Source: a virus
Virus record (IMG/VR): IMGVR_UViG_3300025383_001098
Strand: one strand, 5' to 3'
DNA: 64,000 nucleotides
Shown: one piece after another, positions 1-55,168 of the stretch
Layout of the letters: each line of letters begins with the position of its first letter
Numbering within the stretch: position 1 is the first letter of the stretch
Notes under the pieces: generated by a model
What the model saw: the letters and a program-made list of their open reading frames with translations, nothing else
What the model was told of the DNA's origin: nothing
Databases searched by the model: none
Position numbers and translations under genes: made by a program

Positions 1-2
1 AT

Positions 3-1037
3 TCTGACTGGAAGGCATATCGCCAAGGCTGTATGTTCCTTGAAGGTTTGGGCATACCATATAGACTAACTGTTAATCTTGACGAATATCTATCCACTCC
101 GGCCGACATTAAATTGGCCATTTCTAACAGTAGATTTGGTAAATTTTTTAGTACAATACACTACCAAGAATTTGTTAATACTGTAAACAATATCGCCGCC
201 CAAAGTGATGCTGTTGTTTTAATCGAAAGCGAACTGCATCAAGAATCTTGTTTTTATTCACGGTGTAGATCAAATGTTCATTGGGTTATTCCCGGTATTG
301 TAAATACCAAACTTGACAATCAATTTTTCAGCGGCGCCTGGTTAGAAAGAACCAGAGACTTGTACAGACAACTGCCCGACAAATTAAGTCAACTCGATCC
401 TTTGTCTGTTAAACCAAAATACTTTGATGCTTTATTGGGAATGGTAAAACCGCATAGAACCTTTGTTTTTAATTCTGTTGGCGAACATAGACTCGCAGAC
501 AAAATTATAGAGACTTATAGTGCAGCAAAACAAGATTTTTTGTACGAATCTGGCACGGTTCGTGCTGATAATAACCCCGATACTACACAGAATATTGTCT
601 ACGAAGGCATAGACACAACCATAAGCCAGGTTATTCCCATTGGTATCTATAACCAAACAGCCTATACCATTGTAACCGAAACTGACACGGATAATGAATT
701 TAGTTTTTTTACCGAAAAAATAGCCAAACCATTAATAGCACGTAGGCTATTTGTAGTATTTTCGGGACAGCATTATCTACAAAATTTACGCAGTTTAGGT
801 TTTAAAACATTTGATGGTATTATCGATGAAACCTATGACACTATTGAAAATGCGGAACATCGTTTTATATCTGCTTTTCAACAGGTAAAACGATTGTGTG
901 AAATGAACCAGTCTGAAGTACTTGCCCAAATCAACGAAATAGTAAATCACAATCATCAGATGATTATGAACGGCGAGTGGGGCAATATGGTACGACAGTA
1001 TCCTGCTGATGTTGTCAAAAACTTGACAAATAAATAA
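3..1037 (+). CDS. GT-B (GT10-like) glycosyltransferase-like protein, paralogue 1; probably 5'-truncated by the window edge
   Basis: Frame is open from position 3. C-terminal motif ET..FFTEKIAKP...RRLF....GFKTFDGIIDETYD is shared with the ORFs at 16436 and 25023. Confidence 0.55.
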   Translation, partial: SDWKAYRQGCMFLEGLGIPYRLTVNLDEYLSTPADIKLAISNSRFGKFFSTIHYQEFVNTVNNIAAQSDAVVLIESELHQESCFYSRCRSNVHWVIPGIVNTKLDNQFFSGAWLERTRDLYRQLPDKLSQLDPLSVKPKYFDALLGMVKPHRTFVFNSVGEHRLADKIIETYSAAKQDFLYESGTVRADNNPDTTQNIVYEGIDTTISQVIPIGIYNQTAYTIVTETDTDNEFSFFTEKIAKPLIARRLFVVFSGQHYLQNLRSLGFKTFDGIIDETYDTIENAEHRFISAFQQVKRLCEMNQSEVLAQINEIVNHNHQMIMNGEWGNMVRQYPADVVKNLTNK

Positions 1038-1051
1038 AAACCCATTATAAT
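1023..1051 (+). promoter_or_regulatory. sigma70-type promoter
   Basis: TTGACA-17nt-TATAAT just upstream of ATG 1058. Confidence 0.7.
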
Positions 1052-1057
1052 ACAAGC

Positions 1058-1591
1058 ATGGATATAATGCTTGATTTAGAATCGTTAGGAACACGCCCAG
1101 ATTGTGTAATATTAACTTTGGGTGCTGTTAAATTTGATCCCTTTGAATTAGGGAAAGAACCGGGCCCGGGGCTATATCTACGAATAGACGTAGATGAACA
1201 AACCGCGATTGGGCGTAATATCCAAGACGACACTTTAAACTGGTGGATGAATCAAGCCGAGGATGTACGCGAAGAAGCCTTTGGTACAGAAGATCGTGTT
1301 AGTTTATCTACTATGTATCAAGAACTTAATCGCTTTTTAGTAGGTGCCAATAATATCTGGGCGCAAGGTCCAGTATTTGATATTGCTATTTTAGAAAACA
1401 TTTATCGTCAACAGGGCTGGCCAACCCCATGGCAGTTCTGGCAGATACGTGACTCACGTACACTATTTGGTGTACACGGAGATCCACGTGAAAAAGGCAA
1501 AGCTGGATTACATAATGCTTTAGAAGATTGTGTTAGCCAAGCAGTTGCAGTTCAAAAAGTCTATAATAAACTGGGTTTAACTAAAACCTAA
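1058..1591 (+). CDS. DEDDh 3'-5' exonuclease (DexA/DUF5051-like)
   Basis: Motifs DLESLG, WAQG..FD, RDSRT and HNALED. Confidence 0.85.
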   Translation: MDIMLDLESLGTRPDCVILTLGAVKFDPFELGKEPGPGLYLRIDVDEQTAIGRNIQDDTLNWWMNQAEDVREEAFGTEDRVSLSTMYQELNRFLVGANNIWAQGPVFDIAILENIYRQQGWPTPWQFWQIRDSRTLFGVHGDPREKGKAGLHNALEDCVSQAVAVQKVYNKLGLTKT

Positions 1592-1701
1592 CTCTAAGAG
1601 AAAACACACACTTAAATTTCTTTCGGATCCTGTTAAATACTAATAGGAGCTGGAATCTACACGATTCTGCTACCAATAATAATAATTAAAAAAGGTAGAA
1701 G

Positions 1702-2184
1702 ATGCGTTGTTTCAACAAGATTATTCTAATCATAATCGCCGGGTGGGCAAGTAGTACCTACGCCACTCCGATAAACGACTTTCAATTTAAAAGCCCAAGT
1801 TTAAACGGATCTGGATATGGCGCTTTCCAACTTGGCTTGGAAAACGAGCAATATACACGTCAGCAAGCCGTTGCGGCACAACTCAAAGCCGATGCTGTAG
1901 CAGCAGCTGCGGCAGCACAAAACACTCCCTTACAACAATTTCTAACTAACTTAGAGTCGCGTATCTACGCACAAATATCTCAAAACGTAGCTACAAGTAT
2001 GTTCAGTACCCCGGGACAAGTTCAGCCCGGTAGCATTGCCTTTGGCGCTGGAAATATAACTTGGGGACAGATTATCATGCCCGGCGGAGGCCAGGGAATA
2101 CAATTACACGTGTTTGATGGTATGAATATGACTACTATCAACGTGCCAATGGGCCAATTTACACCAGGCGGGGGCGGGCAATAA
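1702..2184 (+). CDS. csgF: CsgF-like curli assembly protein
   Basis: Signal peptide; FQFKSPSLNG resembles the CsgF F.F.NP.FGG N-terminus; LQQFLTNLESRIYAQIS helix; translationally coupled to csgG. Confidence 0.75.
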   Translation: MRCFNKIILIIIAGWASSTYATPINDFQFKSPSLNGSGYGAFQLGLENEQYTRQQAVAAQLKADAVAAAAAAQNTPLQQFLTNLESRIYAQISQNVATSMFSTPGQVQPGSIAFGAGNITWGQIIMPGGGQGIQLHVFDGMNMTTINVPMGQFTPGGGGQ

Positions 2185-3488
2185 TGAAACGCTTATTAAT
2201 TTTATCCGCCTTGGTTGCTCTATTGTCTGGTTGTGCTGTTAGCCAGAAAGTGGGCCTCCTGGAAGAAAAACCAAAACTAATGAAACAGGAAATGGTCAAA
2301 GAACTTGATTCTGTTCCTCCTCCTCGTAACGGTAGATTAACTGTGGCGGTGTATAGTTTTGCTGATAAAACAGGACAACGTAAAGCAACCCCGGGAGTGG
2401 CAAGTTTTTCAACAGCAGTTACACAAGGTGGTGACGCATTGTTGATACGTGCTTTACAAGATGTTGGACGTGGCACTTGGTTTGACGTAGTTGAGCGCGG
2501 CGGATTAGATAATTTAACCAAAGAACGACTAATCATTACACAGATGCGACAGGCCTACGAAGGCAACAACGCACAAAAATTAATGCCTTTACAATTTGCC
2601 GGTATCTTAATTGAAGGCGGAATCATTGGATATGATTCAGGATTAGAATCTGGTGGTACAGGTTATAACTTCTTGGGCATTGGTCCCACAACACAATACA
2701 GCAAAGATGTAATCACAATCAGCCTACGTGCTGTAAGTGTAAACACAGGTAAGATATTAGCCACAGTAGCAGTTACAAAAACAGTTTATTCTACAGCAGA
2801 TGCTATTGCTATCTTTAAGAGTGTAGATCCAGGCGGAAGTATAAATGATTTAGTTAAACAAATTGGTGCGCCAAACACAGGAAGTCAAAGTTCTGTTGCT
2901 GCCATATTTCAATTTGAATCTGGTCTAACAGTCAACGAAGCAACTACTATTGCACTTAAGGCCGCTGTTGAAAGTAGTGTAGTTGAATTAATTAAAGAAG
3001 GCGAGCGTAAAGGGATATGGGAATATAAGTTTCCAATGACCCCAGACAAATCATGGTGGGATCTCAGCCGAGACGAAACAAAACCAGTGGCGGAAGTTAA
3101 AAAAGAAGAACCAAAAACACAGCCAGTGGTAGAAGTTAAAAAAGAAGAGCCAACAGTTGCACCAATTGGTCTAAAGAAAACAACCTTGGCTGATGCTACC
3201 AGAGTCTACTCTACCAAGTCAAATTTAAATGGGCCAAGTTACGGACCATATTTAATATATCCTAAGGATACAGTAGTACAGGTAGCACCAACAGAGTTTA
3301 ATGATGTTGTAGAAATAACAACCCCTAACGGTAAACGCGGTTATGTTAAATCTGCACAAATTAAAGAAGAAGTAGTTGTGCCAAAAACATCACCTAAATT
3401 GACTACGGAAGCAGTAATTCCGTTGAGTCAATCAAATAAGGCAGATGTTCCGGCAGATGTATCAGCAAAAGAAGGAGTATTAAAATAG
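2184..3488 (+). CDS. csgG: CsgG curli secretion channel lipoprotein with C-terminal PEK linker and SH3b-like domain
   Basis: Lipobox LSGC; VAVYSFADKTGQRK, FSTAVTQG, WFDVVERGGLDNLTKER and EGGIIGYD motifs. Confidence 0.92.
   Translation: MKRLLILSALVALLSGCAVSQKVGLLEEKPKLMKQEMVKELDSVPPPRNGRLTVAVYSFADKTGQRKATPGVASFSTAVTQGGDALLIRALQDVGRGTWFDVVERGGLDNLTKERLIITQMRQAYEGNNAQKLMPLQFAGILIEGGIIGYDSGLESGGTGYNFLGIGPTTQYSKDVITISLRAVSVNTGKILATVAVTKTVYSTADAIAIFKSVDPGGSINDLVKQIGAPNTGSQSSVAAIFQFESGLTVNEATTIALKAAVESSVVELIKEGERKGIWEYKFPMTPDKSWWDLSRDETKPVAEVKKEEPKTQPVVEVKKEEPTVAPIGLKKTTLADATRVYSTKSNLNGPSYGPYLIYPKDTVVQVAPTEFNDVVEITTPNGKRGYVKSAQIKEEVVVPKTSPKLTTEAVIPLSQSNKADVPADVSAKEGVLK
3083..3152 (+). repeat. Tandem intragenic repeat (PVAEVKKEEP / PVVEVKKEEP) in the CsgG linker
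   Basis: ccagtggcggaagttaaaaaagaagaacca and ccagtggtagaagttaaaaaagaagagcca. Confidence 0.8.
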
Positions 3489-3551
3489 GAGCAATACCGA
3501 TGGAGTAGTAGGAGCCATAGGACAAGGCCATAGGCCAAAGGAAAAAAGAAA

Positions 3552-4478
3552 ATGAAATATAGACTGGCAAGAATAATAACAATAATGCTTGGTCTTGTGT
3601 GTACAGGTGTTTATGCTGCTGATAACAGCATTTACATTAATCAAACAGGTAGCAATTCGACAATTAACATGACCCAGAATGGTGCGAGTAACGTTGTCGA
3701 GGGCATTCAGACAACCGGCTCGGGCCCAACCACGCCCGCAGTAATTACAGGTAATAATAACACAGTCAACGTAAGTCAAGTTGGTTCTGGCAATACTCTA
3801 CAGTTAGGTGTACAAACTGGTATAGCCAATAGTGGACAAAATACGGGTTCGGGATCAGGTAATAACTTTACCTACAACGTGACCGGTGACAATGCCACAG
3901 CCGTTATTAATAGTAATAATACAGGCACAGCAGGAGCGAGCTTGAGTAATAATGTTACTGTGAACCAAAGCGGTGATAATTCCAACTTGAATGTTAACCT
4001 ATTAGGGTCAAATAATAACTTTACAGCAACAACCAGCGGTGGTGCAAGCAATAGTGTAGTAGCTACTATCAAAGGCACCGGTACTAATGATACTATTAGT
4101 ATGACTGGCGGAGCAAGTAATAGTATGACTTTGAATCAAGGTGTAAACACTAACGTGGTAACAGGTACAAATGTAAACGTATCAAGTGTTGGTAGTAATA
4201 ACACTTATACATTAAACCAAGATGGTGGTACTAATGGTAACTCAATTACCATTGGTGGATATAATGCCACTGGTACAAACGTAAGTGGATCAGCAGTTGG
4301 CAATGGTAATACCTATACCGTGACACAGTCAGGTAGTTATGATAATACCTTGGTACTTGGTGTAACTGGTGGTAGCAATACCTTCGGCATTACACAAACA
4401 GCAACAGGCGGTAATAATGTAACTAACATTCAATCGAATGGTAGTAGCAACTCATGGACAATACACCAAACACGCTAA
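3552..4478 (+). CDS. Curlin-like beta-solenoid secreted protein (CsgA/B-like)
   Basis: Signal peptide; Asn/Gly/Thr/Ser-rich with repeated N-x-hydrophobic-x-hydrophobic-x-Q-x-G-x-x-N units; follows csgG. Confidence 0.75.
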   Translation: MKYRLARIITIMLGLVCTGVYAADNSIYINQTGSNSTINMTQNGASNVVEGIQTTGSGPTTPAVITGNNNTVNVSQVGSGNTLQLGVQTGIANSGQNTGSGSGNNFTYNVTGDNATAVINSNNTGTAGASLSNNVTVNQSGDNSNLNVNLLGSNNNFTATTSGGASNSVVATIKGTGTNDTISMTGGASNSMTLNQGVNTNVVTGTNVNVSSVGSNNTYTLNQDGGTNGNSITIGGYNATGTNVSGSAVGNGNTYTVTQSGSYDNTLVLGVTGGSNTFGITQTATGGNNVTNIQSNGSSNSWTIHQTR

Positions 4479-4479
4479 T

Positions 4480-4650
4480 ATGGATAGACGTTTTTTGGAA
4501 ATAATGTATCAACAGTGGAGTCAGGGCATGACAGACTATGCTCACCGCTGGATAGATTTTGTGGAAATGGCTGCAAAGGTTAATGGAACCACAGCCGATC
4601 AAATAATGAAAGAGTTACAGAAATGCCATTGGTTTATAAAGGGAGACTGA
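4480..4650 (+). CDS. Small hypothetical protein
   Basis: ATG follows the previous stop directly; 56 aa inside the operon. Confidence 0.45.
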   Translation: MDRRFLEIMYQQWSQGMTDYAHRWIDFVEMAAKVNGTTADQIMKELQKCHWFIKGD

Positions 4651-5780
4651 TATGGACGGGACTACTATGCGTACTCTTAGGGAGTATATCCACGAACTCC
4701 GACGCCGCGATCGGGACCATAACGGAACAGGTCAATACCCCTCCTTCGATACAACGGTCGAAGACGACTCTAACTGGGACCAAGGGGACCGGGGTGGAGA
4801 TGCAGGACAGCATCAACACAACAAAGGGTAAGGTTGGTATTGTATTTGCTGATGATACTAAGGTACAGGTAAATGAAAATTCTAAGCTGGTCATTGATGA
4901 GTTCGTATATGATCCAAAAAATAAAGACGCTGGTAAGCTGGCTCTTAACATGGCTTCTGGGACTGTTAGATATGCTTCTGGGGCAATCGCCCACAACAAT
5001 CCTAATAAGGTCGCTATCAATACTCCTACTGCTACTGTGGCTGTTAGAGGCACTGATTTTACTGCCACGGTCGACGAATTAGGCGAATCAACTGTAATTT
5101 TATTACCATCATGTCCACGCAAAGACATGATGCCGGACGAAATAGAACGCCTGTGCAAGACTGGAAAGATAGATGTCATCAACGATGCCGGCACAGTCAC
5201 CCTGGACCAACCATTCCAAGGCACCAAGGTAACAGCACGTAACGTACCTCCAACTCGTCCTGCTGTACTACGCCTAAATGAAGATGGCATCAGCAACATC
5301 TTGATCCTTGCACCTCCCCAGGAAATCAAAAACGCTCTACGCCAACGTGAAGAAGAAAAGCAAATGGCGGTGTCAGCACTCAGCCAAAACTTCCTACAGG
5401 GTGTTGACCTTGGTAGCGTACTTGCTGCACAAAACGCTACCTTTATGAGTAACGCATTACAACGTAACTTCTTAGATCAAGACTTTTTAGCAAACATATT
5501 AACATTATTGAATGAACAGTTGGCACAGGAATTTGGTAACTTATTAGCACCAAAGACCAATGGTATATTGCCAGACTACAAAGCCAGCACTGGTGTGGTA
5601 GCTACAGTTGATCCTATTAATGTTACATTATGTCGAACAGATTCTGGTAATAATACAAGTTGTATTATGACGCCACATGGACAGAATTCAACTGTTACAC
5701 AAACACAAAGCGAAAACGTTGCCATTAAAAATCGTATTAATCAAGGTGGCAACACTATTATAAACATAAAGCAGAACTAA
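4623..5780 (+). CDS. FecR-domain secreted/periplasmic protein with curlin-like C-terminal tail
   Basis: Signal peptide; D.I.T..G...I.FADDT...V.ENS.L.ID and INTPTATVAVRGTDF FecR motifs; ends NRINQGGNTIINIKQN. Confidence 0.85.
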   Translation: MPLVYKGRLIWTGLLCVLLGSISTNSDAAIGTITEQVNTPPSIQRSKTTLTGTKGTGVEMQDSINTTKGKVGIVFADDTKVQVNENSKLVIDEFVYDPKNKDAGKLALNMASGTVRYASGAIAHNNPNKVAINTPTATVAVRGTDFTATVDELGESTVILLPSCPRKDMMPDEIERLCKTGKIDVINDAGTVTLDQPFQGTKVTARNVPPTRPAVLRLNEDGISNILILAPPQEIKNALRQREEEKQMAVSALSQNFLQGVDLGSVLAAQNATFMSNALQRNFLDQDFLANILTLLNEQLAQEFGNLLAPKTNGILPDYKASTGVVATVDPINVTLCRTDSGNNTSCIMTPHGQNSTVTQTQSENVAIKNRINQGGNTIINIKQN

Positions 5781-7255
5781 TGAAACGCATATTAATTATA
5801 TTCTTTCTGCTAATCACAATTGGTCTTGGTGTTCACAGTCAAGACGTAGATGCCAGCGGAGTAGCCGGATGGAACTATACCACCTACTATGGTGGCGGAG
5901 CAAGTCCAAGTATTACCAACAGAACTGTAGATACTACAGGTGTAACCACATCAATCAACTACAACTGGGGCGGCGGATTAGTATTAGATAGTGGTTTATA
6001 TGACGGAGTTATCATACACTTTCAAGGATACTTGCGAGCACCTATCACAGGTACCTATCAATTTGGAGTGGCCAGCGATGATGGCAATCAGCTGACTATC
6101 AACAATACTGTGATAACAGCCTGTTGGTGCGAACAAGGTACTACATTTAGATCGGGCAGTATCTATCTCACAGCCGGACAAATAGTACCAGCGGATATTT
6201 GGTATTATGAAAACGGTGGAGGTGCCGCTGTACAGTTTTATTGGTATACCAATGGATCGTGGCAAATAGTACCTACATCAATGATGGCCACGTCAGCCAG
6301 CTACTGGGGACCAAGTATAACTGGCACAGGCACCGGAACAGTTACTACAACAAGTACAAGTGGATCAATCACATCAACATATAGCCAACCAGTGACCATT
6401 ACGTATTACAGTGACGGAACACAAACTACTGCCAACAACGGAGTAGCCACATTGATCAGTACCACTGATACTGGTGGGTCGTTGACTATCACCGCTACAC
6501 AACAACAAATGGTCAACACCGTTGCGTCAAGAATGCCCGGCTTAGGTGATAACAGCATCTACATAACGCAGACTGGTAATAGCGATACAATTAACATTAC
6601 ACAAAAAGGCGCCGGAAATAAAATAGATGGTGCCACAAGTACAGCCAATGGGCCAGGGTACACTACAGCCGCTCCTATTACTGGAGGCGGGAATCACATT
6701 ACGGTGCGGCAACAATCAAACAACAATTTGATTGATCTTGCGGCTTTAGGTGGTAATAATACCCTTAATTTAAATCAAGGTACAGATGCTAACGGAAACT
6801 CAACTGGCTTAGACACCGGCGGACACTATCAATTTGACTATGTTAATGGTGCAGGTAACACGCTGACTGTAGTACAAGAAAACACCGGCCTTAATGCTGG
6901 ACAATTTAGTAGCGTGGCCATAGTTGGAAACTTAAACACCGTAGGGATTACACAAACTGGCACAGCTCGTAATCAGTTGTTTGCTACAGTATCAGGCAAT
7001 AGTAACTCAATAACTACAAGCCAAACAGGAACCAGTGCAGGTTATATTAACATTAATGCAACTGGTAATGGTAACTCTGCGGTAGTGAATCAATCAAACA
7101 CTGGAGCCAGTGGCACTAATAATGCTTCGATAACATTAATCAATAATGGATCTCCGGCCAGTGTAAATTTAACACAAACTGGTGGACAGAATTATTCAGT
7201 AACACAATCATGCGCCACTGCCTGTGGAACTGTAACAGTAAGACAAGGAAATTAA
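5780..7255 (+). CDS. PA14 domain plus curlin-like repeat protein
   Basis: PA14 motifs INYNWG, GYL.AP.TGTY.F...SDDG, YYENGGGA; C-terminal half has Q-x-G-x-x-N repeats. Confidence 0.8.
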   Translation: MKRILIIFFLLITIGLGVHSQDVDASGVAGWNYTTYYGGGASPSITNRTVDTTGVTTSINYNWGGGLVLDSGLYDGVIIHFQGYLRAPITGTYQFGVASDDGNQLTINNTVITACWCEQGTTFRSGSIYLTAGQIVPADIWYYENGGGAAVQFYWYTNGSWQIVPTSMMATSASYWGPSITGTGTGTVTTTSTSGSITSTYSQPVTITYYSDGTQTTANNGVATLISTTDTGGSLTITATQQQMVNTVASRMPGLGDNSIYITQTGNSDTINITQKGAGNKIDGATSTANGPGYTTAAPITGGGNHITVRQQSNNNLIDLAALGGNNTLNLNQGTDANGNSTGLDTGGHYQFDYVNGAGNTLTVVQENTGLNAGQFSSVAIVGNLNTVGITQTGTARNQLFATVSGNSNSITTSQTGTSAGYININATGNGNSAVVNQSNTGASGTNNASITLINNGSPASVNLTQTGGQNYSVTQSCATACGTVTVRQGN

Positions 7256-7260
7256 TTAAT

Positions 7261-7449
7261 ATGATATCATTTAAAATGAGTAAATGGGTACGCTTAGATG
7301 AAGCAGATGACATTAGTCTATACGTACAAAAAATTGGTGGCTACTACGAAGTACACAGACATGACATTGAATTCTATGTACCAGTTGAATACAGAGATTT
7401 TATGTTAATTAAATATCCGTTGTTAGACGAGGTGGCTTATGTTTATTAA
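7261..7449 (+). CDS. Hypothetical protein
   Basis: ATG at 7261 after the previous stop; overlaps the next gene. Confidence 0.55.
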   Translation: MISFKMSKWVRLDEADDISLYVQKIGGYYEVHRHDIEFYVPVEYRDFMLIKYPLLDEVAYVY

Positions 7450-7633
7450 ACTATTGGTACAAATTGCTGGCGGACTATTTGGATTCTTTGTTGCCTATCT
7501 AATGTATCGTATTGTCGAACGACCATACGAACGTAGCACAGAGGAAGCTCGAATCAAGTACGAAGCAGAGATGGCAGAAATACGCCGACGGAAAGAACAA
7601 CTGCATCGCAATAAAAAGTCAATTTTTAATTGA
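7439..7633 (+). CDS. Small membrane protein
   Basis: N-terminal TM helix followed by a charged helix. Confidence 0.55.
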   Translation: MFIKLLVQIAGGLFGFFVAYLMYRIVERPYERSTEEARIKYEAEMAEIRRRKEQLHRNKKSIFN

Positions 7634-7687
7634 TAAATAAAAGTGCGGGCACAAGATAAGGTGTCGCTGGAATCCGTAACCAGTGCT

Positions 7688-7713
7688 AAAGGACCGAAAG
7701 GTCCTTTTTCTTT
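7688..7713 (+). terminator. Rho-independent terminator
   Basis: aaaggacc-gaaa-ggtccttt plus T tract. Confidence 0.85.
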
Positions 7714-7787
7714 GTCACAATTTTCTGGTTGACACGTAATAAATACTATGTTACAGTTATATTACAGTAACCGGAAAGGAGTAAGCT

Positions 7788-7946
7788 ATGAAACAAAGCA
7801 AATTAGTGCGTAAAGTGTATCAGGCTTGCTTCGACCACGATGCCGAGAAACAGCTGGAACTTCGCAAGAAGGAATACGCTAAAATCTTGAAACACAAGGC
7901 CGAAGGCAAACCATTTGACACAAAATGGACAGTAGTACAGATTTAA
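7788..7946 (+). CDS. Small basic hypothetical protein (52 aa)
   Basis: aggag SD, ATG 7788, open to TAA 7946; below the ORF-track length cutoff. Confidence 0.6.
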
Positions 7947-7959
7947 CAAAATTGTAATA
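7941..7959 (+). promoter_or_regulatory. Candidate degenerate Pho box
   Basis: tttaaca / tgtaata half-sites at 11-bp spacing upstream of the plcP-like gene. Confidence 0.3.
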
Positions 7960-7991
7960 CTTCAACTACCCATTGGGCGGTAAATACGTAT

Positions 7992-8768
7992 ATGGAACGT
8001 ACTTACCGCTCAATTTTTGTATCCGACATACACTTTGGCACCAGAGACTGTAAGGCCGACGAACTCAATAATTTTCTTAAACACAACACTTGTGAGACTC
8101 TTTACTTAGTAGGCGACATCATTGACGCTTGGAAGATTCAACAAAACAAGTGGCGGTGGAAACAGAGCCATACCAATGCTATCAGACGTATATTAGGTCA
8201 CGCCAAACGTGGAACTCGAGTAGTGTATATAGCTGGCAACCATGACGAATTCCTTCGTCCACTGATACCATATGGTATGGGATTTGGTCGCGTGGAAATA
8301 GTAAATCAAACAGAACACACAGGCGTAGATGGTCGGACATACTTAGTTACACACGGAGATTTGTTTGACGGCATTACACGATTAGCACCGTGGCTAAGTT
8401 TCTTAGGTGATAAATTATATGATTTTGTGCTTGATCTTAATAGTCGTTTTAATTGGCTACGACATCGTCTGGGCTTTGGTTATTGGAGTCTGTCTAAGTT
8501 TCTTAAACATAGGGTCAAAAAGGCCGCCGACTTCATGTTCCAGTTCGAACGAAACTTAGCTGCTTATTGTAAGAAGCGTGGGTTTGATGGTGTTATATGT
8601 GGACATATACATCACGCTGAAATCAAAGAAATTGATGGTGTTGCGTATATGAATGACGGAGATTGGGTCGAGTCAATGACAGCCTTAGTTGAACATCATG
8701 ATGGCCGGTGGGAGATAGTAACCTGGACTCGAGCAAATGACCAAGACAATATTAGTAATAACAGATAA
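7992..8768 (+). CDS. plcP: PlcP-type (LpxH-like) metallophosphoesterase / phospholipase C
   Basis: SDIHFG, LVGDIID.W, RVVYIAGNHDEFLR, HGDLFD, CGHIH and YMNDGDWVES; coupled to a GT4 gene as in plcP-agt loci. Confidence 0.75.
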   Translation: MERTYRSIFVSDIHFGTRDCKADELNNFLKHNTCETLYLVGDIIDAWKIQQNKWRWKQSHTNAIRRILGHAKRGTRVVYIAGNHDEFLRPLIPYGMGFGRVEIVNQTEHTGVDGRTYLVTHGDLFDGITRLAPWLSFLGDKLYDFVLDLNSRFNWLRHRLGFGYWSLSKFLKHRVKKAADFMFQFERNLAAYCKKRGFDGVICGHIHHAEIKEIDGVAYMNDGDWVESMTALVEHHDGRWEIVTWTRANDQDNISNNR

Positions 8769-9735
8769 TGTTCCAGACCAAATCAATGGAGTGGTCACAA
8801 CTTTCAAGAACTTGGAAGATTGTGCTCGCAGTGACGGGTATCGTGTTGTTTATTGTGATCCCGGGCAGTTCCCTAATTTTGCTTGCCCTGGCTATCCTGA
8901 AGTTCGCCTCTGTTGGCCGCACGGTATCAGTAAAAAAATTAAAGCGATACAGCCAGATTTTATACACATCGCTACGGAAGGGCCTGTAGGCCTATTTGCA
9001 AGGTGGTGGTGTGAGCGCAATCATATTCCTTATAATACTTCTTATCATACTGATTTCCCCGAGTTCTTAAAGACAATGTATGGGGTACCTAAGTCGTTGA
9101 CCTATTGGTACTTGCGTTGGTTTCATAAGAACAGTCATCGAGTATTAGTTACTACAAAGACCATAGAAGCGGATTTAGCCTCGCACGGTTTTACAAATAT
9201 GGTTATATGGACTCGTGGTGTTCGCAGAGACATAGAGCCCAGCGTTCCTTGGTGCGAAAATCGTTCAAAACCAATGTTACTTAATGTAGGTCGTGTCAGC
9301 GCCGAAAAAGGTCTATCAAATTTAGTAGAATTTGACCCAACCGAATATACCGTGGTTGTTGTAGGTGAAGGTCCATATATGAGTCGTGCCAGAGAGCTAC
9401 TACCTGATGCCAAATTTGTAGGATATAAATCTGGGCAAGAATTGGTAGATTATTACAATCAAGCAGATGTATTTGTTTTCCCCAGCCAAGCAGATACGTT
9501 TGGATTAGTTATTATAGAAGCAATGGCACAGGGTTGTCCTGTAGCAGCATTTCCTGTACAAGGTCCTATAGATATCATAGAACAAGGTGTAAATGGTTAC
9601 ATGGATTGGGATTTGGAATTGGCAGTTAAACAATGTTTGACATTAGATAGAGATCAAGTTAAAATATCAAGTGAGCGTTGGACTTGGTCCGAATGCTGGC
9701 GTATATTTCGAGAAAATTTAGCAGAAATCAAGTAG
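8737..9735 (+). CDS. GT4 glycosyltransferase (Agt-like diacylglycerol glycosyltransferase)
   Basis: TD..PDQINGVV, IHIATEGPVG, SYHTDFPE, VGRVSAEKG and DTFGLVIIEAMAQG motifs. Confidence 0.85.
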   Translation: MTKTILVITDNVPDQINGVVTTFKNLEDCARSDGYRVVYCDPGQFPNFACPGYPEVRLCWPHGISKKIKAIQPDFIHIATEGPVGLFARWWCERNHIPYNTSYHTDFPEFLKTMYGVPKSLTYWYLRWFHKNSHRVLVTTKTIEADLASHGFTNMVIWTRGVRRDIEPSVPWCENRSKPMLLNVGRVSAEKGLSNLVEFDPTEYTVVVVGEGPYMSRARELLPDAKFVGYKSGQELVDYYNQADVFVFPSQADTFGLVIIEAMAQGCPVAAFPVQGPIDIIEQGVNGYMDWDLELAVKQCLTLDRDQVKISSERWTWSECWRIFRENLAEIK

Positions 9736-9749
9736 TAAAAGGAAGTAAC

Positions 9750-9902
9750 ATGTTTGTATTAGAATACCTGGCGATAGGTTTTATAACAGTCTTTGGGTGG
9801 AATTCAGGACAGGCAGTTTGGGATAAGTATGTAGACATACCCCAGGCAGAACAGTCTCAAAAGTCAACCGGTAGTAAGAATGACACAAGAAGCAAAATCT
9901 AA
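9750..9902 (+). CDS. Small membrane protein
   Basis: aagga SD before ATG 9750; hydrophobic N-terminus. Confidence 0.45.
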   Translation: MFVLEYLAIGFITVFGWNSGQAVWDKYVDIPQAEQSQKSTGSKNDTRSKI

Positions 9903-9998
9903 AACGTGGTTAGACAAGTTTGAAAGAGTAGTAGATAACATACTGCGTATACTATGGTTGATATTATTAATTGGATGGATAGTTAATAATCATCAATT

Positions 9999-10646
9999 AT
10001 GAAAACCATTGCCTTATTCATAGCCGATCCCAAATGCTCAGTACAAAGTGCAAACGGTATCATGCAAGCACTGGGAAATAATTTCCGTTACAAGATATTC
10101 AGTAAAAATGCCTTAGAGGACAGTTTCTTTGATTCTGTTGATCTAATTGTGGTACCCGGCGGCTTTGGCGATGCTGATAGTTTTGATACCCTGTTCAAAT
10201 ATAATAAAACCCGTGTTAAAGAATTTATAAAAAGTGGTGGCCAGTACCTGGGAATTTGTATGGGTGCGTATTGGGCAGGCCAACATTACTTTGATATATT
10301 AGACCAAGTGGATGTTGTGCAGTACATAACACACCCCAGTACTTGTACACGTAGGCCACACGCTAAAAATATTGCCACTGAGTGGTACGGTGGGCACTAT
10401 CAAGACATGTTCTTTTACGATGGGCCTACCTTTGTCGGGCCAGGCAATTATCGTACTATAGCCACATACGCCACAACTGGGTTGCCCATGGCCATACAGC
10501 AAGGCAACATAGCGTTAATTGGGTGCCATCCCGAAAGCGAGCAATTTTGGTATGACAATTATAGCTGGATGAAAGGCAAATACCATAACGGCCAACATCA
10601 CGAAATATTAAAGGACTTTGTAGAAGAACTCATAATAAATACTTGA
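9999..10646 (+). CDS. BPL_N / class I glutamine amidotransferase-like protein
   Basis: VPGG, YLGICMGAY nucleophile elbow and HPE triad motif. Confidence 0.8.
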   Translation: MKTIALFIADPKCSVQSANGIMQALGNNFRYKIFSKNALEDSFFDSVDLIVVPGGFGDADSFDTLFKYNKTRVKEFIKSGGQYLGICMGAYWAGQHYFDILDQVDVVQYITHPSTCTRRPHAKNIATEWYGGHYQDMFFYDGPTFVGPGNYRTIATYATTGLPMAIQQGNIALIGCHPESEQFWYDNYSWMKGKYHNGQHHEILKDFVEELIINT

Positions 10647-12697
10647 TGTTCAAAAAAATATTAACCAGTCCATGGACGGCATTATTAACATTAGCACTTG
10701 TTCTAAGTATAAGAATTGCAGATCCTACATTTATAGAAAGCGTAAGACTACGTTATTTTGATACTTTAGTAACAAGTCGAGCACCAGAAACAATTGGTGT
10801 AAGTGTAGTAAACATTGATGAAAAAGCCCTGGAAAAATATGGGCAATTCCCTTTTTCAAGAGACATATATGGAAAAATTATTAGCGATTTGTACCGTCGC
10901 AATGCGGGCCTTGTTGTATTTAATATTCTCACTCCTGATCGTGATCGCCTTGGTCGAGATGCGGATTATATAGCCTCACTACGCCAATACCCAACGATCC
11001 TGCCCAGTGTAGGTAGCACACAAACTCGTAACACGCCGAGAGCACCGGGATCAGTAGTAATTGGTCCATACGGCTTAGATACATTTGTAACATACCCTGG
11101 ACTTATTGCCAACATACCCGGTGTTGAATCGGCAGCTGCAGGTGTTGGTATTACTAACACACTTCCTGAAGTTGATGGAGTCGTACGTCGTATGCCGTTG
11201 GTGGTTGCCTATAATGGCAAACTATATCCAAGCCTGGCAATGGAAACACTTCGTGTTGCTGGTGCAGACTCAACTGTACAGATCAAGGTAAATGAGAATG
11301 GCGTTGAGAAAATGCGTATTCCCAAGTTTGGTCCTGTTACTACAGATAGTTTATCACGAATCTGGATTGACTGGTCATTGGTTCCAGAACATTATAGTTT
11401 AACTGATTTACCTCAAGATTTTGATGGTGATATAGTTATTGTTGGAGTATCAGCGCAGGGACTTGCTAATCCTGTTGCTACAAGTCGAGGCGAAATATTG
11501 CCACAAGATTTACAAGCAAGTGTACTGGGTACTGTAATTGCCAATCGAGATCGACCTGTTATTACCAGACCTGATTGGGCCGAAGGCGGAGAAGTAATTC
11601 TGTTAGCTGTTATTGGTGTTCTATTAATCTTTTTGTCAAGGTGGACTTATGTTGGACTTCTTAGTGCAGTTGTTATTATTGGTGGTAGTATTCCCCTTTC
11701 TAATTATTTGTATTCGGCTAATGCTTGGCTTGTCGACATTACTGGTTTGGTTGGTGGGCTTGTTCTTGTTGCTCTCCATGTTTACGGGGTCAAATTTGTA
11801 AGTGAGTTCTTACAAAAGCAAGCAATTAAGAAACAGTTTGCTGGCTATTGCAGTAAAGAAGTAGTAGAGATGCTACAAAAAGATCCAGACCTAATCAAGC
11901 GTGGTGTACGTAAAGACGTGTCAGTTATGTTCTCAGACTTGCGTGGGTTTACACCTATTGGTGAACACTATGGTGATGATGTTGCTGGCTTAGGCAAGTA
12001 CATGAACGGCTACATGGATGCTATCAGTCAACCTATGTTAGACAACAAAGGTATGATTATTAAGTATGTAGGTGACGCATCGATGCACATACACGGTGCT
12101 CCTATTGAAGACCCTAACCATGCTCATACTATCGTTAAAGTTGGTTTAGAGATGTTAGATGCGGTAGACGAGTATACCAAGATTATGGAAGCACAGGGCC
12201 TGCCTCCTGCCGCAATGGGTTGGGGCTGTAACTCAGGTATTGGCTTTATTGGTGAGATGGGGTCAACTGACCGTCACAGCTATGACATCTTAGGCGACAT
12301 GGTAAGCACAGCCGCACGTTTAGAAGCTCGTTGTAAGGCTTATGGTGTGCTATGTATCATCGGTGCTGAAACTTACAATCGTACTAAAGACGACTTTTTC
12401 TACTTGTTGTTAGATAACTTACAGCCTAAAGGTAAAACTGTAGCTGACTTGATTTATACAGCACTACGTACACGTGGTGTTGATTACACAAAAGATCGAG
12501 AGCAACACGAAGCGATGCATGCCTTATATCGAGCTAAAAAGTTTGATGAAGCAGCCGCAATGTGTAAAAAGTTAGTGGGAAATTTTGGTGGGCAAATGGA
12601 TAAGTATTACAAGATCTGGATCGAACGTTGTGAGTTTATGAAACAACAAGATTTACCAGACAATTGGAATGGCGAATTCATAGCTCACGAAAAATGA
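10646..12697 (+). CDS. CHASE2-domain class III adenylate/guanylate cyclase
   Basis: N-terminal TM; CHASE2 motifs VNIDEKAL..YGQFP..R and DGVVRRMP; 3 TM helices; FSDLRGFT, IKYVGD and GD.V..AARLE. Confidence 0.92.
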   Translation: MFKKILTSPWTALLTLALVLSIRIADPTFIESVRLRYFDTLVTSRAPETIGVSVVNIDEKALEKYGQFPFSRDIYGKIISDLYRRNAGLVVFNILTPDRDRLGRDADYIASLRQYPTILPSVGSTQTRNTPRAPGSVVIGPYGLDTFVTYPGLIANIPGVESAAAGVGITNTLPEVDGVVRRMPLVVAYNGKLYPSLAMETLRVAGADSTVQIKVNENGVEKMRIPKFGPVTTDSLSRIWIDWSLVPEHYSLTDLPQDFDGDIVIVGVSAQGLANPVATSRGEILPQDLQASVLGTVIANRDRPVITRPDWAEGGEVILLAVIGVLLIFLSRWTYVGLLSAVVIIGGSIPLSNYLYSANAWLVDITGLVGGLVLVALHVYGVKFVSEFLQKQAIKKQFAGYCSKEVVEMLQKDPDLIKRGVRKDVSVMFSDLRGFTPIGEHYGDDVAGLGKYMNGYMDAISQPMLDNKGMIIKYVGDASMHIHGAPIEDPNHAHTIVKVGLEMLDAVDEYTKIMEAQGLPPAAMGWGCNSGIGFIGEMGSTDRHSYDILGDMVSTAARLEARCKAYGVLCIIGAETYNRTKDDFFYLLLDNLQPKGKTVADLIYTALRTRGVDYTKDREQHEAMHALYRAKKFDEAAAMCKKLVGNFGGQMDKYYKIWIERCEFMKQQDLPDNWNGEFIAHEK

Positions 12698-12810
12698 TCA
12701 TTGATAAGTTAATTGACACGTATGTATGGTGGTTTTTGCAGATATATTTTTTGCCATATCGTTTGCCCGAGTACGGCACAGAAGTAGACAAGTGGGTTAG
12801 TACGTTCAGT

Positions 12811-13524
12811 CTAAACGGTGTCAAGAGCTCGAACCTTTGCAAGCCCGAAGCGTCTAAGTAGTTGTATATACGTCCAACCTAAATCCCACTCCCACGGTTT
12901 CATTGATAATTTAGCACTGGCAGGATCTGCATGGTGATTGTTGTGTAGTTCTTCGCCGCCAATAAAGAATGCCCAGGGTACAATGTTAGTTGAGTAGTCA
13001 TTGGTCTTAGTATTGCGATAACCCCACCAATGCCCGAAGCCGTTAATAACACCTGCGGCCCATAAGGGAATCCAAATCATTTGCCATAGCCAAGGCAACC
13101 AACCCCAAGCCCAGCCAAATATAGCAGAATTAATAAAAAACATTAACACAATGCCTGCAAAGTTAAATGGTGTGTAGATATGCTTTTCAACCCAATCATC
13201 GGGTGTACCTACTCCGTACTGTTCAACCATTTGACGATCTTTAGCGGCATCGGCATAGTAAAATGCACCACCTAAGAATATTTGCCAGATACCGTATACA
13301 CGTGGGCTATGAGGATCACCTTCTCCGTCGGTAAATCTGTGATGTTTACGATGTATAGCCACCCATTGCTTGGTAACCATACCAGTTGTTAACCACAACC
13401 AAAAACGCATAAAGTGTTCTATATAAGGATGAAATGTAACTGAACGATGTGCTTGACTACGATGTAAGTAAAGGGTAACGCAGGCAATGGTGATGTGAGT
13501 CATCACCAGGATGTATATTAACAT
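12811..13524 (-). CDS. Membrane fatty acid (delta-9 acyl-lipid/CoA) desaturase
   Basis: His boxes HRSQAH, HRKHH and ELHNNHH. Confidence 0.9.
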   Translation of the reverse strand: MLIYILVMTHITIACVTLYLHRSQAHRSVTFHPYIEHFMRFWLWLTTGMVTKQWVAIHRKHHRFTDGEGDPHSPRVYGIWQIFLGGAFYYADAAKDRQMVEQYGVGTPDDWVEKHIYTPFNFAGIVLMFFINSAIFGWAWGWLPWLWQMIWIPLWAAGVINGFGHWWGYRNTKTNDYSTNIVPWAFFIGGEELHNNHHADPASAKLSMKPWEWDLGWTYIQLLRRFGLAKVRALDTV

Positions 13525-30784: not shown

Positions 30785-30813
30785 GCTAAGTTCATAGCAA
30801 TAAATATATTACT

Positions 30814-55099: not shown

Positions 55100-55168
55100 T
55101 CTAAACCAGTCTTACCCAAAAGCACCGTTCGCGGTGCTTTTTTCTTGGTTGTAGTAAATATGTAATAT

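Follow-up and report, generated by a model that had tools for sequence, protein, structure and literature searches.

A FecR-fold protein and a CHASE2 adenylate-cyclase-like receptor in the viral type VIII secretion region of an uncultured aquatic phage: a candidate sensor pair at the curli pore

The 64,000-nucleotide stretch of IMG/VR virus record IMGVR_UViG_3300025383_001098 analyzed here (the window, meaning the whole stretch) contains, complete, the viral type VIII secretion system (T8SS, or curli) region already known from the literature, carried by a large aquatic phage that has not been cultured. It corresponds to the minus strand of a virus contig of 127 kb with a CheckV completeness of 35%; the contig represents part of the genome, and every contig-wide search reported below shares that scope. 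In this region, an exported FecR-fold protein is encoded together with a CHASE2 class III adenylate-cyclase-like receptor. Our analysis adds three points to what has been published: CHASE2 is the sensor of the cyclase, FecR/CHASE2-cyclase pairs occur in bacteria that have no T8SS, and the C-terminal domain of the FecR protein is restricted to T8SS loci. The interpretation we favor, for which we see the case as evenly balanced, is that the two proteins form a periplasmic sensor pair docked to the curli pore and controlling cyclic AMP (cAMP).

Five plus-strand genes between 1702 and 7255 (csgF, csgG, and the genes for the curlin-like, FecR-fold and PA14-curlin proteins, by Pfam) abut or overlap, and are followed on their 3' side by two small open reading frames (ORFs) and then a terminator hairpin. 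From the end of this operon at 7255 to the ATG of the CHASE2 cyclase at 10646, the distance is 3.39 kb. What an earlier note on this DNA described is present at the positions that it gave, and two of its supporting observations, on the end of the FecR protein and on a TAAATA box, turned out to be its weak points. The genes of the block are:

1702..2184, plus strand: csgF, 160 aa with a signal peptide (Pfam CsgF, 38.9 bits), kept in related loci.
2184..3488, plus strand: csgG lipoprotein, 434 aa (Pfam CsgG, 142 bits), with the lipobox LSGC and a core at approximately residues 1-285.
3552..4478, plus strand: curlin-like repeat protein, 308 aa with a signal peptide, Gln/Asn/Gly-rich, with eight x-phi-x-phi-x-Q strands.
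4623..5780, plus strand: exported FecR-fold protein, 385 aa (Pfam FecR, 42.2 bits, residues 64-158).
5780..7255, plus strand: PA14 lectin-like head fused to curlin repeats, 491 aa (Pfam PA14, 54.3 bits).
10646..12697, plus strand: CHASE2 class III adenylate-cyclase-like receptor, 683 aa (Pfam CHASE2, 123.8 bits; Guanylate_cyc, 52.7 bits).

The defining features of the viral T8SS region are all found in the window: csgF and csgG are adjacent on a phage contig, a curlin gene follows csgG, the FecR gene comes next and is followed by a second curlin gene, and an adenylate cyclase gene closes the block on its downstream side, displaced here by 3.4 kb of inserted genes. The earlier note had put the arrangement forward as an undescribed system, a claim that does not survive the literature. 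Wittmers et al. 2022 (PMC9599517) described the whole viral T8SS region, including FecR and the adenylate cyclase, and in GenBank the corresponding two genes of Melnitz already bear the labels “FecR domain protein” and “adenylate/guanylate cyclase catalytic domain.” According to that study (PMC9599517), the block has a single alphaproteobacterial origin, moved between myo- and podoviruses as a unit, shows metatranscriptome expression and multigene selection, and is present at all 65 GOV2.0 ocean stations. In that paper FecR is taken for an iron regulator and the cyclase for a regulator, a short “histidine kinase” is placed before csgF, and CHASE2 goes unmentioned. Two further reports, Zaragoza-Solas et al. 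2020 (PMC7029224) and Buchholz et al. 2022 (PMC9004378), cover only csgF/csgG and unnamed neighbors.

Among cultured phages, HTVC008M (NC_020484 gp014-gp019; SAR11 host) and Melnitz (MZ577097 genes 99-104; OM43 host) carry the six genes contiguously, with 8-15 nt before the cyclase. Megablast of positions 1-12700 against deposited phages returned no match, and these two relatives were found at the protein level only. By tblastn, the FecR protein is 36.5% identical to that of Melnitz over 96% of the query and 40.2% identical to that of HTVC008M over 83% (E 2e-49 to 3e-55), and the cyclase matches the Melnitz cyclase at 44.3% identity over 100% of the query (E 2e-171).

Co-occurrence of csgF, csgG, FecR and the CHASE2 cyclase across phage genomes, a test set beforehand, proved nearly exceptionless from three anchors and survived inversions and insertions. 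Starting from FecR (60 viral loci at 36-100% identity, counting distinct sequences with at least 8 kb downstream), a full-length cyclase was present in 58 of 59 loci, the exception being L034, where the cyclase is split. When the cyclase served as the anchor (the best 80 of more than 561 viral relatives, counting those with at least 8 kb on both sides), FecR was found in 34/35 loci and CsgG in all 35; the exception, L119, has a tblastn match to FecR with no intact ORF. With CsgG as the anchor and at least 9.5 kb downstream, FecR was present in 50/50 loci and the cyclase in 48/50, and one of the two exceptions, L230, is the same contig as L111, in which the cyclase lies just past the flank. Since the phages are related, these counts are not independent events.

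The core order is csgF, csgG, curlin, FecR, (second curlin) and cyclase, with minimal forms that lack the second curlin or, in L030, both curlins. The module is inverted relative to the cyclase and still adjacent to it in four loci (L122, L128, L136 and L140), and variable inserts are tolerated. Genes outside the block differ between loci, and the linkage is kept down to 31-38% FecR identity. Relatives lie on contigs of 356-372 kb. Two relatives are damaged, L034 with its cyclase divided into ORFs of 333 aa and 365 aa, and L119 with its FecR gene not intact.

The association also extends beyond viruses. A search with the FecR alignment against one genome per prokaryote species revealed 15 bacterial loci in which the genes for a FecR-domain protein and a CHASE2 cyclase are neighbors and CsgG/CsgF are lacking, drawn from Myxococcota, Deltaproteobacteria, Planctomycetia, Spirochaetales, Elusimicrobia, Omnitrophota, Micavibrio and several alphaproteobacterial metagenome-assembled genomes (MAGs). 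In 14/15 of them the cyclase has the tail domain described below, and their FecR proteins are longer (429-931 aa), with different ends and the same N-terminal domain. Because it is present in bacteria without a T8SS, the FecR/CHASE2 pairing is independent of curli. Published loci agree with the earlier note's statement that CHASE2 sensors are often encoded next to FecR-domain proteins: in Burkholderia, a BiofilmReg LysM-FecR protein accompanies a CHASE2 kinase (PMC5192318); the S. meliloti cyaD1 locus places FecR beside a CHASE2 cyclase (PMC5498481); and a Campylobacterota cluster comprises CHASE2 cyclase, PDE, FecR and TPR genes (PMC9239204). The FecR-CHASE2 link is a real, general pairing.

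One bacterial locus contains the full module. In a Caulobacteraceae MAG (L150, 5818-13127), a SpdA/CpdA-like phosphodiesterase lies directly 5' of csgF, after which come csgG, two curlin genes, FecR and the CHASE2 cyclase; the flanks are cellular (methylmalonyl-CoA mutase, acyl-CoA dehydrogenase). Separately, isolates of Candidatus Pelagibacter (L172, 6223-11341; also L171, L174, L154 and L211) encode three proteins in a row, one of the CHASE2-SpoIIE(PP2C) type, one of 538 aa to which Pfam gives no match and one of 500 aa with a FecR domain, so the host clade of HTVC008M has a FecR/CHASE2 system of its own with a different output.

The AlphaFold2 (AF2) model of the window's FecR protein, with a mean predicted local distance difference test (pLDDT) score of 82, comprises a signal helix (residues 3-21), a beta domain (31-203), a low-confidence helical linker (220-304) and a six-strand C-terminal domain (325-383). 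Residues 59-226 match the PupR CCSSD domain 6ovk_R (Z 15.6, root-mean-square deviation (rmsd) 2.6 over 135 residues) and BDI_1681 (4m0n; Z 14.7) at 12-16% identity. The protein has a signal peptide, no cytoplasmic anti-sigma N-terminus, no transmembrane (TM) segment in a hydropathy scan and no lipobox. Of the components of FecIRA-type signaling, the periplasmic FecR/CJM beta fold is present, and the anti-sigma domain with its TM helix and the sigma factor/transducer are lacking. The earlier note's remark that the window holds no extracytoplasmic function (ECF) sigma factor or TonB receptor extends to the whole 127-kb contig, on which neither Sigma70_r2 nor TonB_dep_Rec gave a match. As an observation apart, the RTX adhesin MpIBP has a periplasmic retention domain (RIN, 5IX9) that plugs its outer-membrane pore, and the first beta-sandwich of the FecR protein (residues 27-124) aligns with this domain (Z 7.1, rmsd 2.5, 73/76 residues); this middling score may reflect a common fold only.

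The C-terminal domain sets the T8SS-linked FecR proteins apart. Apart from L148, whose upstream flank is missing, the loci matched by a hidden Markov model (HMM) of this domain all have CsgG/CsgF, and none of the 15 T8SS-less bacterial pairs is matched. Folded alone, the domain reaches a pLDDT of 88 and forms a compact six-strand unit instead of a run of repeats. Foldseek against the PDB returned no match at E up to 0.001, and a wider structure search gave Ig-like fragments as its best result (Z 3.7), with no match to curlin/CsgA, although the folds are not thereby shown to be different. The earlier note described the end of this protein as curlin-like. What stands is a family-conserved ending, a Gly-rich turn followed by an (I/V)-T-(I/V)-x-Q-N strand that resembles the ends of both neighboring curlins. 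Profile similarity is weak, as hhalign against the neighboring curlins gave a probability of 4.7% (P 0.008), with the extreme C-termini aligned.

The cyclase has the architecture of a CHASE2 sensor. A first TM segment is followed by a periplasmic CHASE2 domain (approximately residues 26-315), a TM bundle (approximately 310-386), a catalytic domain (424-582) and a helical tail (approximately 586-683); the Pfam CHASE2 match spans residues 17-326, and hydropathy places hydrophobic segments at 12-30 and 310-386. By its catalytic residues, the protein looks like an adenylate cyclase. The metal-binding D431 and D477, the substrate Lys K473 and the transition-state Arg R558 do not vary among 93 sequences. 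D547, the adenine-type Asp of the substrate Lys/Asp pair, occupies a position that is D in 76/93 and T/S in 17/93.

The tail domain is common to the bacterial relatives of the cyclase. In 33 loci, a small ORF of approximately 95-160 aa, often located just 5' of csgF, is homologous to this tail (residues ~571-683); examples are L011:2583-2891, L023:7190-7591, L066:4773-5123, L108:2310-2669 and L128:19560-19910. Pfam gave only sub-threshold matches for both the tail and the small ORF, which occurs neither in the window nor elsewhere on the 127-kb contig. This ORF might be the short “histidine kinase” placed before csgF in the published description (PMC9599517).

Taken together, these data suggest how the favored sensor pair at the pore could operate. 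From what is known of the families, the CsgG/CsgF outer-membrane pore would export the curlin-repeat proteins. The FecR-fold protein would stay in the periplasm as the partner of CHASE2, a role proposed because the same two-gene pairing is widespread in T8SS-less bacteria. Its T8SS-specific C-terminal beta domain may dock to the pore or to subunits in transit and would, in doing so, replace the missing CsgE. The state of secretion, of the fiber or of the envelope would then set cAMP synthesis in the infected cell. A narrower claim, which we hold to be rather doubtful, is that FecR physically bridges the curli pore or fiber and CHASE2, so that cAMP reports fiber assembly or contact of the lectin-headed fiber. 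Complex prediction with CHASE2 residues 26-315 and FecR residues 29-240 (a 59-row alignment for each) scored 0.00 against a mark of 0.32, a result that weighs neither way on binding. The proposals of the earlier note that the fiber is the input of the cyclase, and that its output times lysis or senses host density, are not supported by these data and stay conjectural.

Several observations weigh against a sensor pair at the pore. The contacts of FecR with CHASE2 and with CsgG, the signal and the role in infection are all putative. The transition-state Asn of the GxxVNxAxR motif is Ser554 in the window and Ser in 76/93 relatives (Asn in 17/93), and because of this replacement cyclase activity is not assured. 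No cyclic nucleotide monophosphate (cNMP)-binding domain or protein was found on the 127-kb contig. Transcription of the window's cyclase is separate from that of the operon, with a terminator, a promoter-like site and approximately 3 kb of cargo lying between the two. The curlin profile match of the FecR C-terminus is weak, and the cyclase-anchored count draws on the best matches only; some cyclase loci show no module in short flanks, namely L108 (10 kb upstream), L113/L114/L117 and L097.

The divergence of the proteins points the same way. In pairwise-distance matrices for 59 paired loci, where correlation cannot separate co-evolution from linkage decay, FecR distances follow those of its own C-terminal domain (rho 0.77), and the FecR N-domain co-diverges with CsgG (rho 0.69) far more than with CHASE2 (rho 0.37), the catalytic domain (rho 0.22) or the tail (rho 0.15). 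In 18 sequence pairs, distant FecR proteins accompany close CHASE2 domains. As FecR tracks CsgG better than it tracks the parts of the cyclase, cyclase alleles seem to have been exchanged between modules.

This pattern of divergence is also what would be expected if FecR were purely a T8SS accessory, for instance an assembly factor or, in place of CsgE, a chaperone or gate in the periplasm, and the cyclase an independent envelope sensor in the same pathway that makes no contact with it and whose cAMP regulates expression of the module or host metabolism. Such an arrangement, which we judge unlikely, would further fit the constant position of FecR within the curli operon, between the fiber genes, the lack of a CsgE match anywhere on the 127-kb contig, the placement of the window's cyclase in a separate transcription unit, and the published view of the cyclase as a regulator (PMC9599517). 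It does not, however, account for FecR-domain proteins that adjoin CHASE2 cyclases, kinases and phosphatases in bacteria devoid of a T8SS, and no transcription factor or cNMP-binding protein was found in the module or on the contig.

The conserved curlin-like ending of the FecR protein raises another reading, namely that this protein is itself exported via CsgG and, through its last strand, becomes part of the fiber as a nucleator, cap or minor subunit; it would then be an extracellular head comparable to PA14 and no periplasmic relay. The Gly-rich turn and terminal strand, the hhalign alignment of the C-termini (P 0.008), the folded heads borne by other cargo (PA14, discoidin), and a signal peptide with no membrane anchor or lipobox are consistent with such a role. 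We nevertheless consider it quite improbable, given that the profile similarity to curlins is weak (probability 4.7%), AF2 yields a compact six-strand domain instead of repeats, the FecR fold in PupR/FecR is a periplasmic signaling domain, and CHASE2 partners in T8SS-less bacteria share the same FecR N-domain. Finally, the absence of any functional coupling, with the block merely co-inherited from an alphaproteobacterium or FecR acting as an iron-citrate regulator, would suit the single alphaproteobacterial origin and unit transfer between virus families (PMC9599517) and the shared phage ancestry behind the co-occurrence counts, but it is very improbable, since linkage persists to 31-38% FecR identity through inversions, insertions and turnover of flanking genes, a cytoplasmic anti-sigma domain is missing from the FecR protein and neither an ECF sigma factor nor a TonB-dependent receptor was found on the contig, and the same pairing recurs in unrelated bacterial phyla.

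The block is abundant in aquatic phages and is predicted to equip infected cells with an outer-membrane secretion system absent from hosts such as SAR11. With CHASE2 recognized as the sensor of the cyclase and FecR as its customary partner in bacteria, a concrete, testable hypothesis takes the place of the “iron regulator” reading. Should the bridging of pore and cyclase prove true, it would represent a virus-encoded trans-envelope sensory system and offer a first mechanism for the widespread bacterial FecR-CHASE2 pairing, and because the cultured phages Melnitz and HTVC008M are available, the module is a tractable model for that pairing.

The pore and fiber genes themselves vary among relatives. 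The NCBIfam CsgG score of the window protein (156.6 bits) falls under the 505-bit equivalog cut-off, and its C-terminal extension of approximately 150 aa (window 3030-3488) contains a duplicated Lys/Glu/Pro-rich linker and a weak SH3-like match (SH3_2, E 0.044). CsgG relatives fall into short (~270-320 aa) and long (~380-444 aa) forms. In the 308-aa protein, Curlin_rpt remains sub-threshold (14.8 bits, E 0.028), and by position the protein is the homologue of the “curlin associated repeat protein” annotated in Melnitz and HTVC008M; the gathering score is passed only in the C-terminal half of the PA14 protein (22 bits, four stretches). Neither CsgC nor CsgD matches were found among the operon proteins scanned with Pfam. 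Across relatives, the gene slot after FecR encodes a variable surface protein of 119-1098 aa, many of whose long versions have no Pfam match. In L105 (6649-9945) and L070 (7764-9680) this protein carries F5/8 type C (discoidin) domains, and in L091 (7121-9172) it is an autotransporter beta-domain protein. Directly 5' of csgF, the window encodes an Rv2179c-like 3'-5' exoribonuclease (1058-1591, 122.7 bits), which recurs beside the module in some relatives (e.g. L005, L011, L013 and L020) and is missing from most.

The following transcription signals and inserted genes surround the operon and separate it from the cyclase:

1634..1639, plus strand: TAAATA motif (TTAAATAC), 62 nt 5' of csgF; candidate T4-type late promoter element.
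7688..7707, plus strand: intrinsic-terminator-like hairpin with an 8-bp stem, four GC pairs and a T tract; ends the curli/FecR unit.
7729..7757, plus strand: sigma-70-like promoter match TTGACA-17-TACAGT, 10/12 matches with a TG extension; a consensus match only, located where the cargo block begins and opening a second unit that takes in the cargo and the cyclase.
7788..10646, plus strand: inserted cargo between operon and cyclase, comprising a small ORF, the esterase, GT4, small membrane ORFs and the GATase/BPL_N-like gene.
7992-8768, plus strand: LpxH/PlcP-like metallophosphoesterase (Pfam/NCBIfam).
8737-9735, plus strand: GT4 glycosyltransferase (Pfam/NCBIfam).
9999-10646, plus strand: GATase/BPL_N-like gene (Pfam/NCBIfam).

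Because the six genes form one tight operon in HTVC008M and Melnitz, the 3.4-kb gap of the window represents inserted cargo. The cargo genes are missing from this place in HTVC008M, Melnitz and most relatives and are variably present in others; L002, L067, L071, L074, L085 and L134 have the esterase/GT4 pair at this same place, between operon and cyclase. Lipid-related genes lie on both sides of the cyclase, namely the esterase and GT4 and, on the minus strand, a DesA-family desaturase (12811-13524; 378.6 bits against a cut-off of 400). The metallophosphoesterase at 7992-8768 was considered as a cAMP phosphodiesterase and rejected, as its best NCBIfam matches are of the LpxH type with no CpdA-type model among those listed, unlike the enzyme of L150. 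The cyclase runs from 10643/10646 to 12697, and its translation truly begins with the ATG at 10646, where start and stop codon of cyclase and GATase-like gene overlap (TGATG); the cyclase is therefore predicted to be translationally coupled to that gene.

TAAATA is rarer overall than expected by chance (50 copies against 84.5), and 18/50 copies lie at most 80 nt 5' of a same-strand gene start, where approximately 6% would be expected by position. The motif is real, and its extended form, (A/T)ATAAATA, which we take to resemble the T4 late promoter, would act as a promoter. The earlier note had placed the cyclase, too, behind a TAAATA box. Enrichment of the motif 5' of genes bears out the box itself; the copy in question (10636-10641), however, ends 4 nt 5' of the ATG, and since this ATG also overlaps the preceding stop, its role as a promoter of the cyclase is doubtful and it is not evidence of co-regulation. 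Motifs of the (A/T)ATAAATA type at 7981-7986, 10636-10641, 30801-30806 and 55155-55160 end 4-8 nt short of an ATG, and the intervening nucleotides hold no Shine-Dalgarno sequence. Transcription from such sites, if they serve as late promoters, would yield messages with little or no leader.

To place the region among known systems, we compared it with four of them. It agrees with the pelagiphage T8SS region in gene order, in proteins 31-45% identical to those of the cultured phages, in having no CsgE and in keeping FecR and the cyclase together. Several features set the window apart from that region: a terminator, a promoter-like site and ~3 kb of cargo stand between operon and cyclase, CsgG ends in a tail of 150 aa, a PA14 head is present on the second curlin, and the host phage is probably much larger. 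With the bacterial FecR + CHASE2 pairs, for which no mechanism is established in the S. meliloti, Campylobacterota or Burkholderia systems, it shares an exported FecR-domain protein encoded beside a CHASE2 membrane sensor; the pairs differ in having no CsgG, CsgF or curlins and in FecR proteins without the C-terminal domain of the window. The bacterial module of L150 additionally resembles the cyaD1 locus in its SpdA/CpdA-like phosphodiesterase. The FecR/PupR anti-sigma factors (6ovk, 4m0n) have in common with the window protein a beta-rich periplasmic fold and a Pfam FecR match, whereas the latter has a cleavable signal peptide, no anti-sigma domain and no TM helix, and its contig no sigma factor or transducer. 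Finally, as in the curli system of E. coli (csgBAC-csgDEFG), there is a CsgG lipoprotein pore, a CsgF and secreted Gln/Asn/Gly-rich strand-turn-strand repeat proteins; in contrast to that system, the viral region has no CsgE match, carries lectin-type heads on its fiber proteins, and includes a FecR-fold protein and a receptor cyclase in the conserved block.

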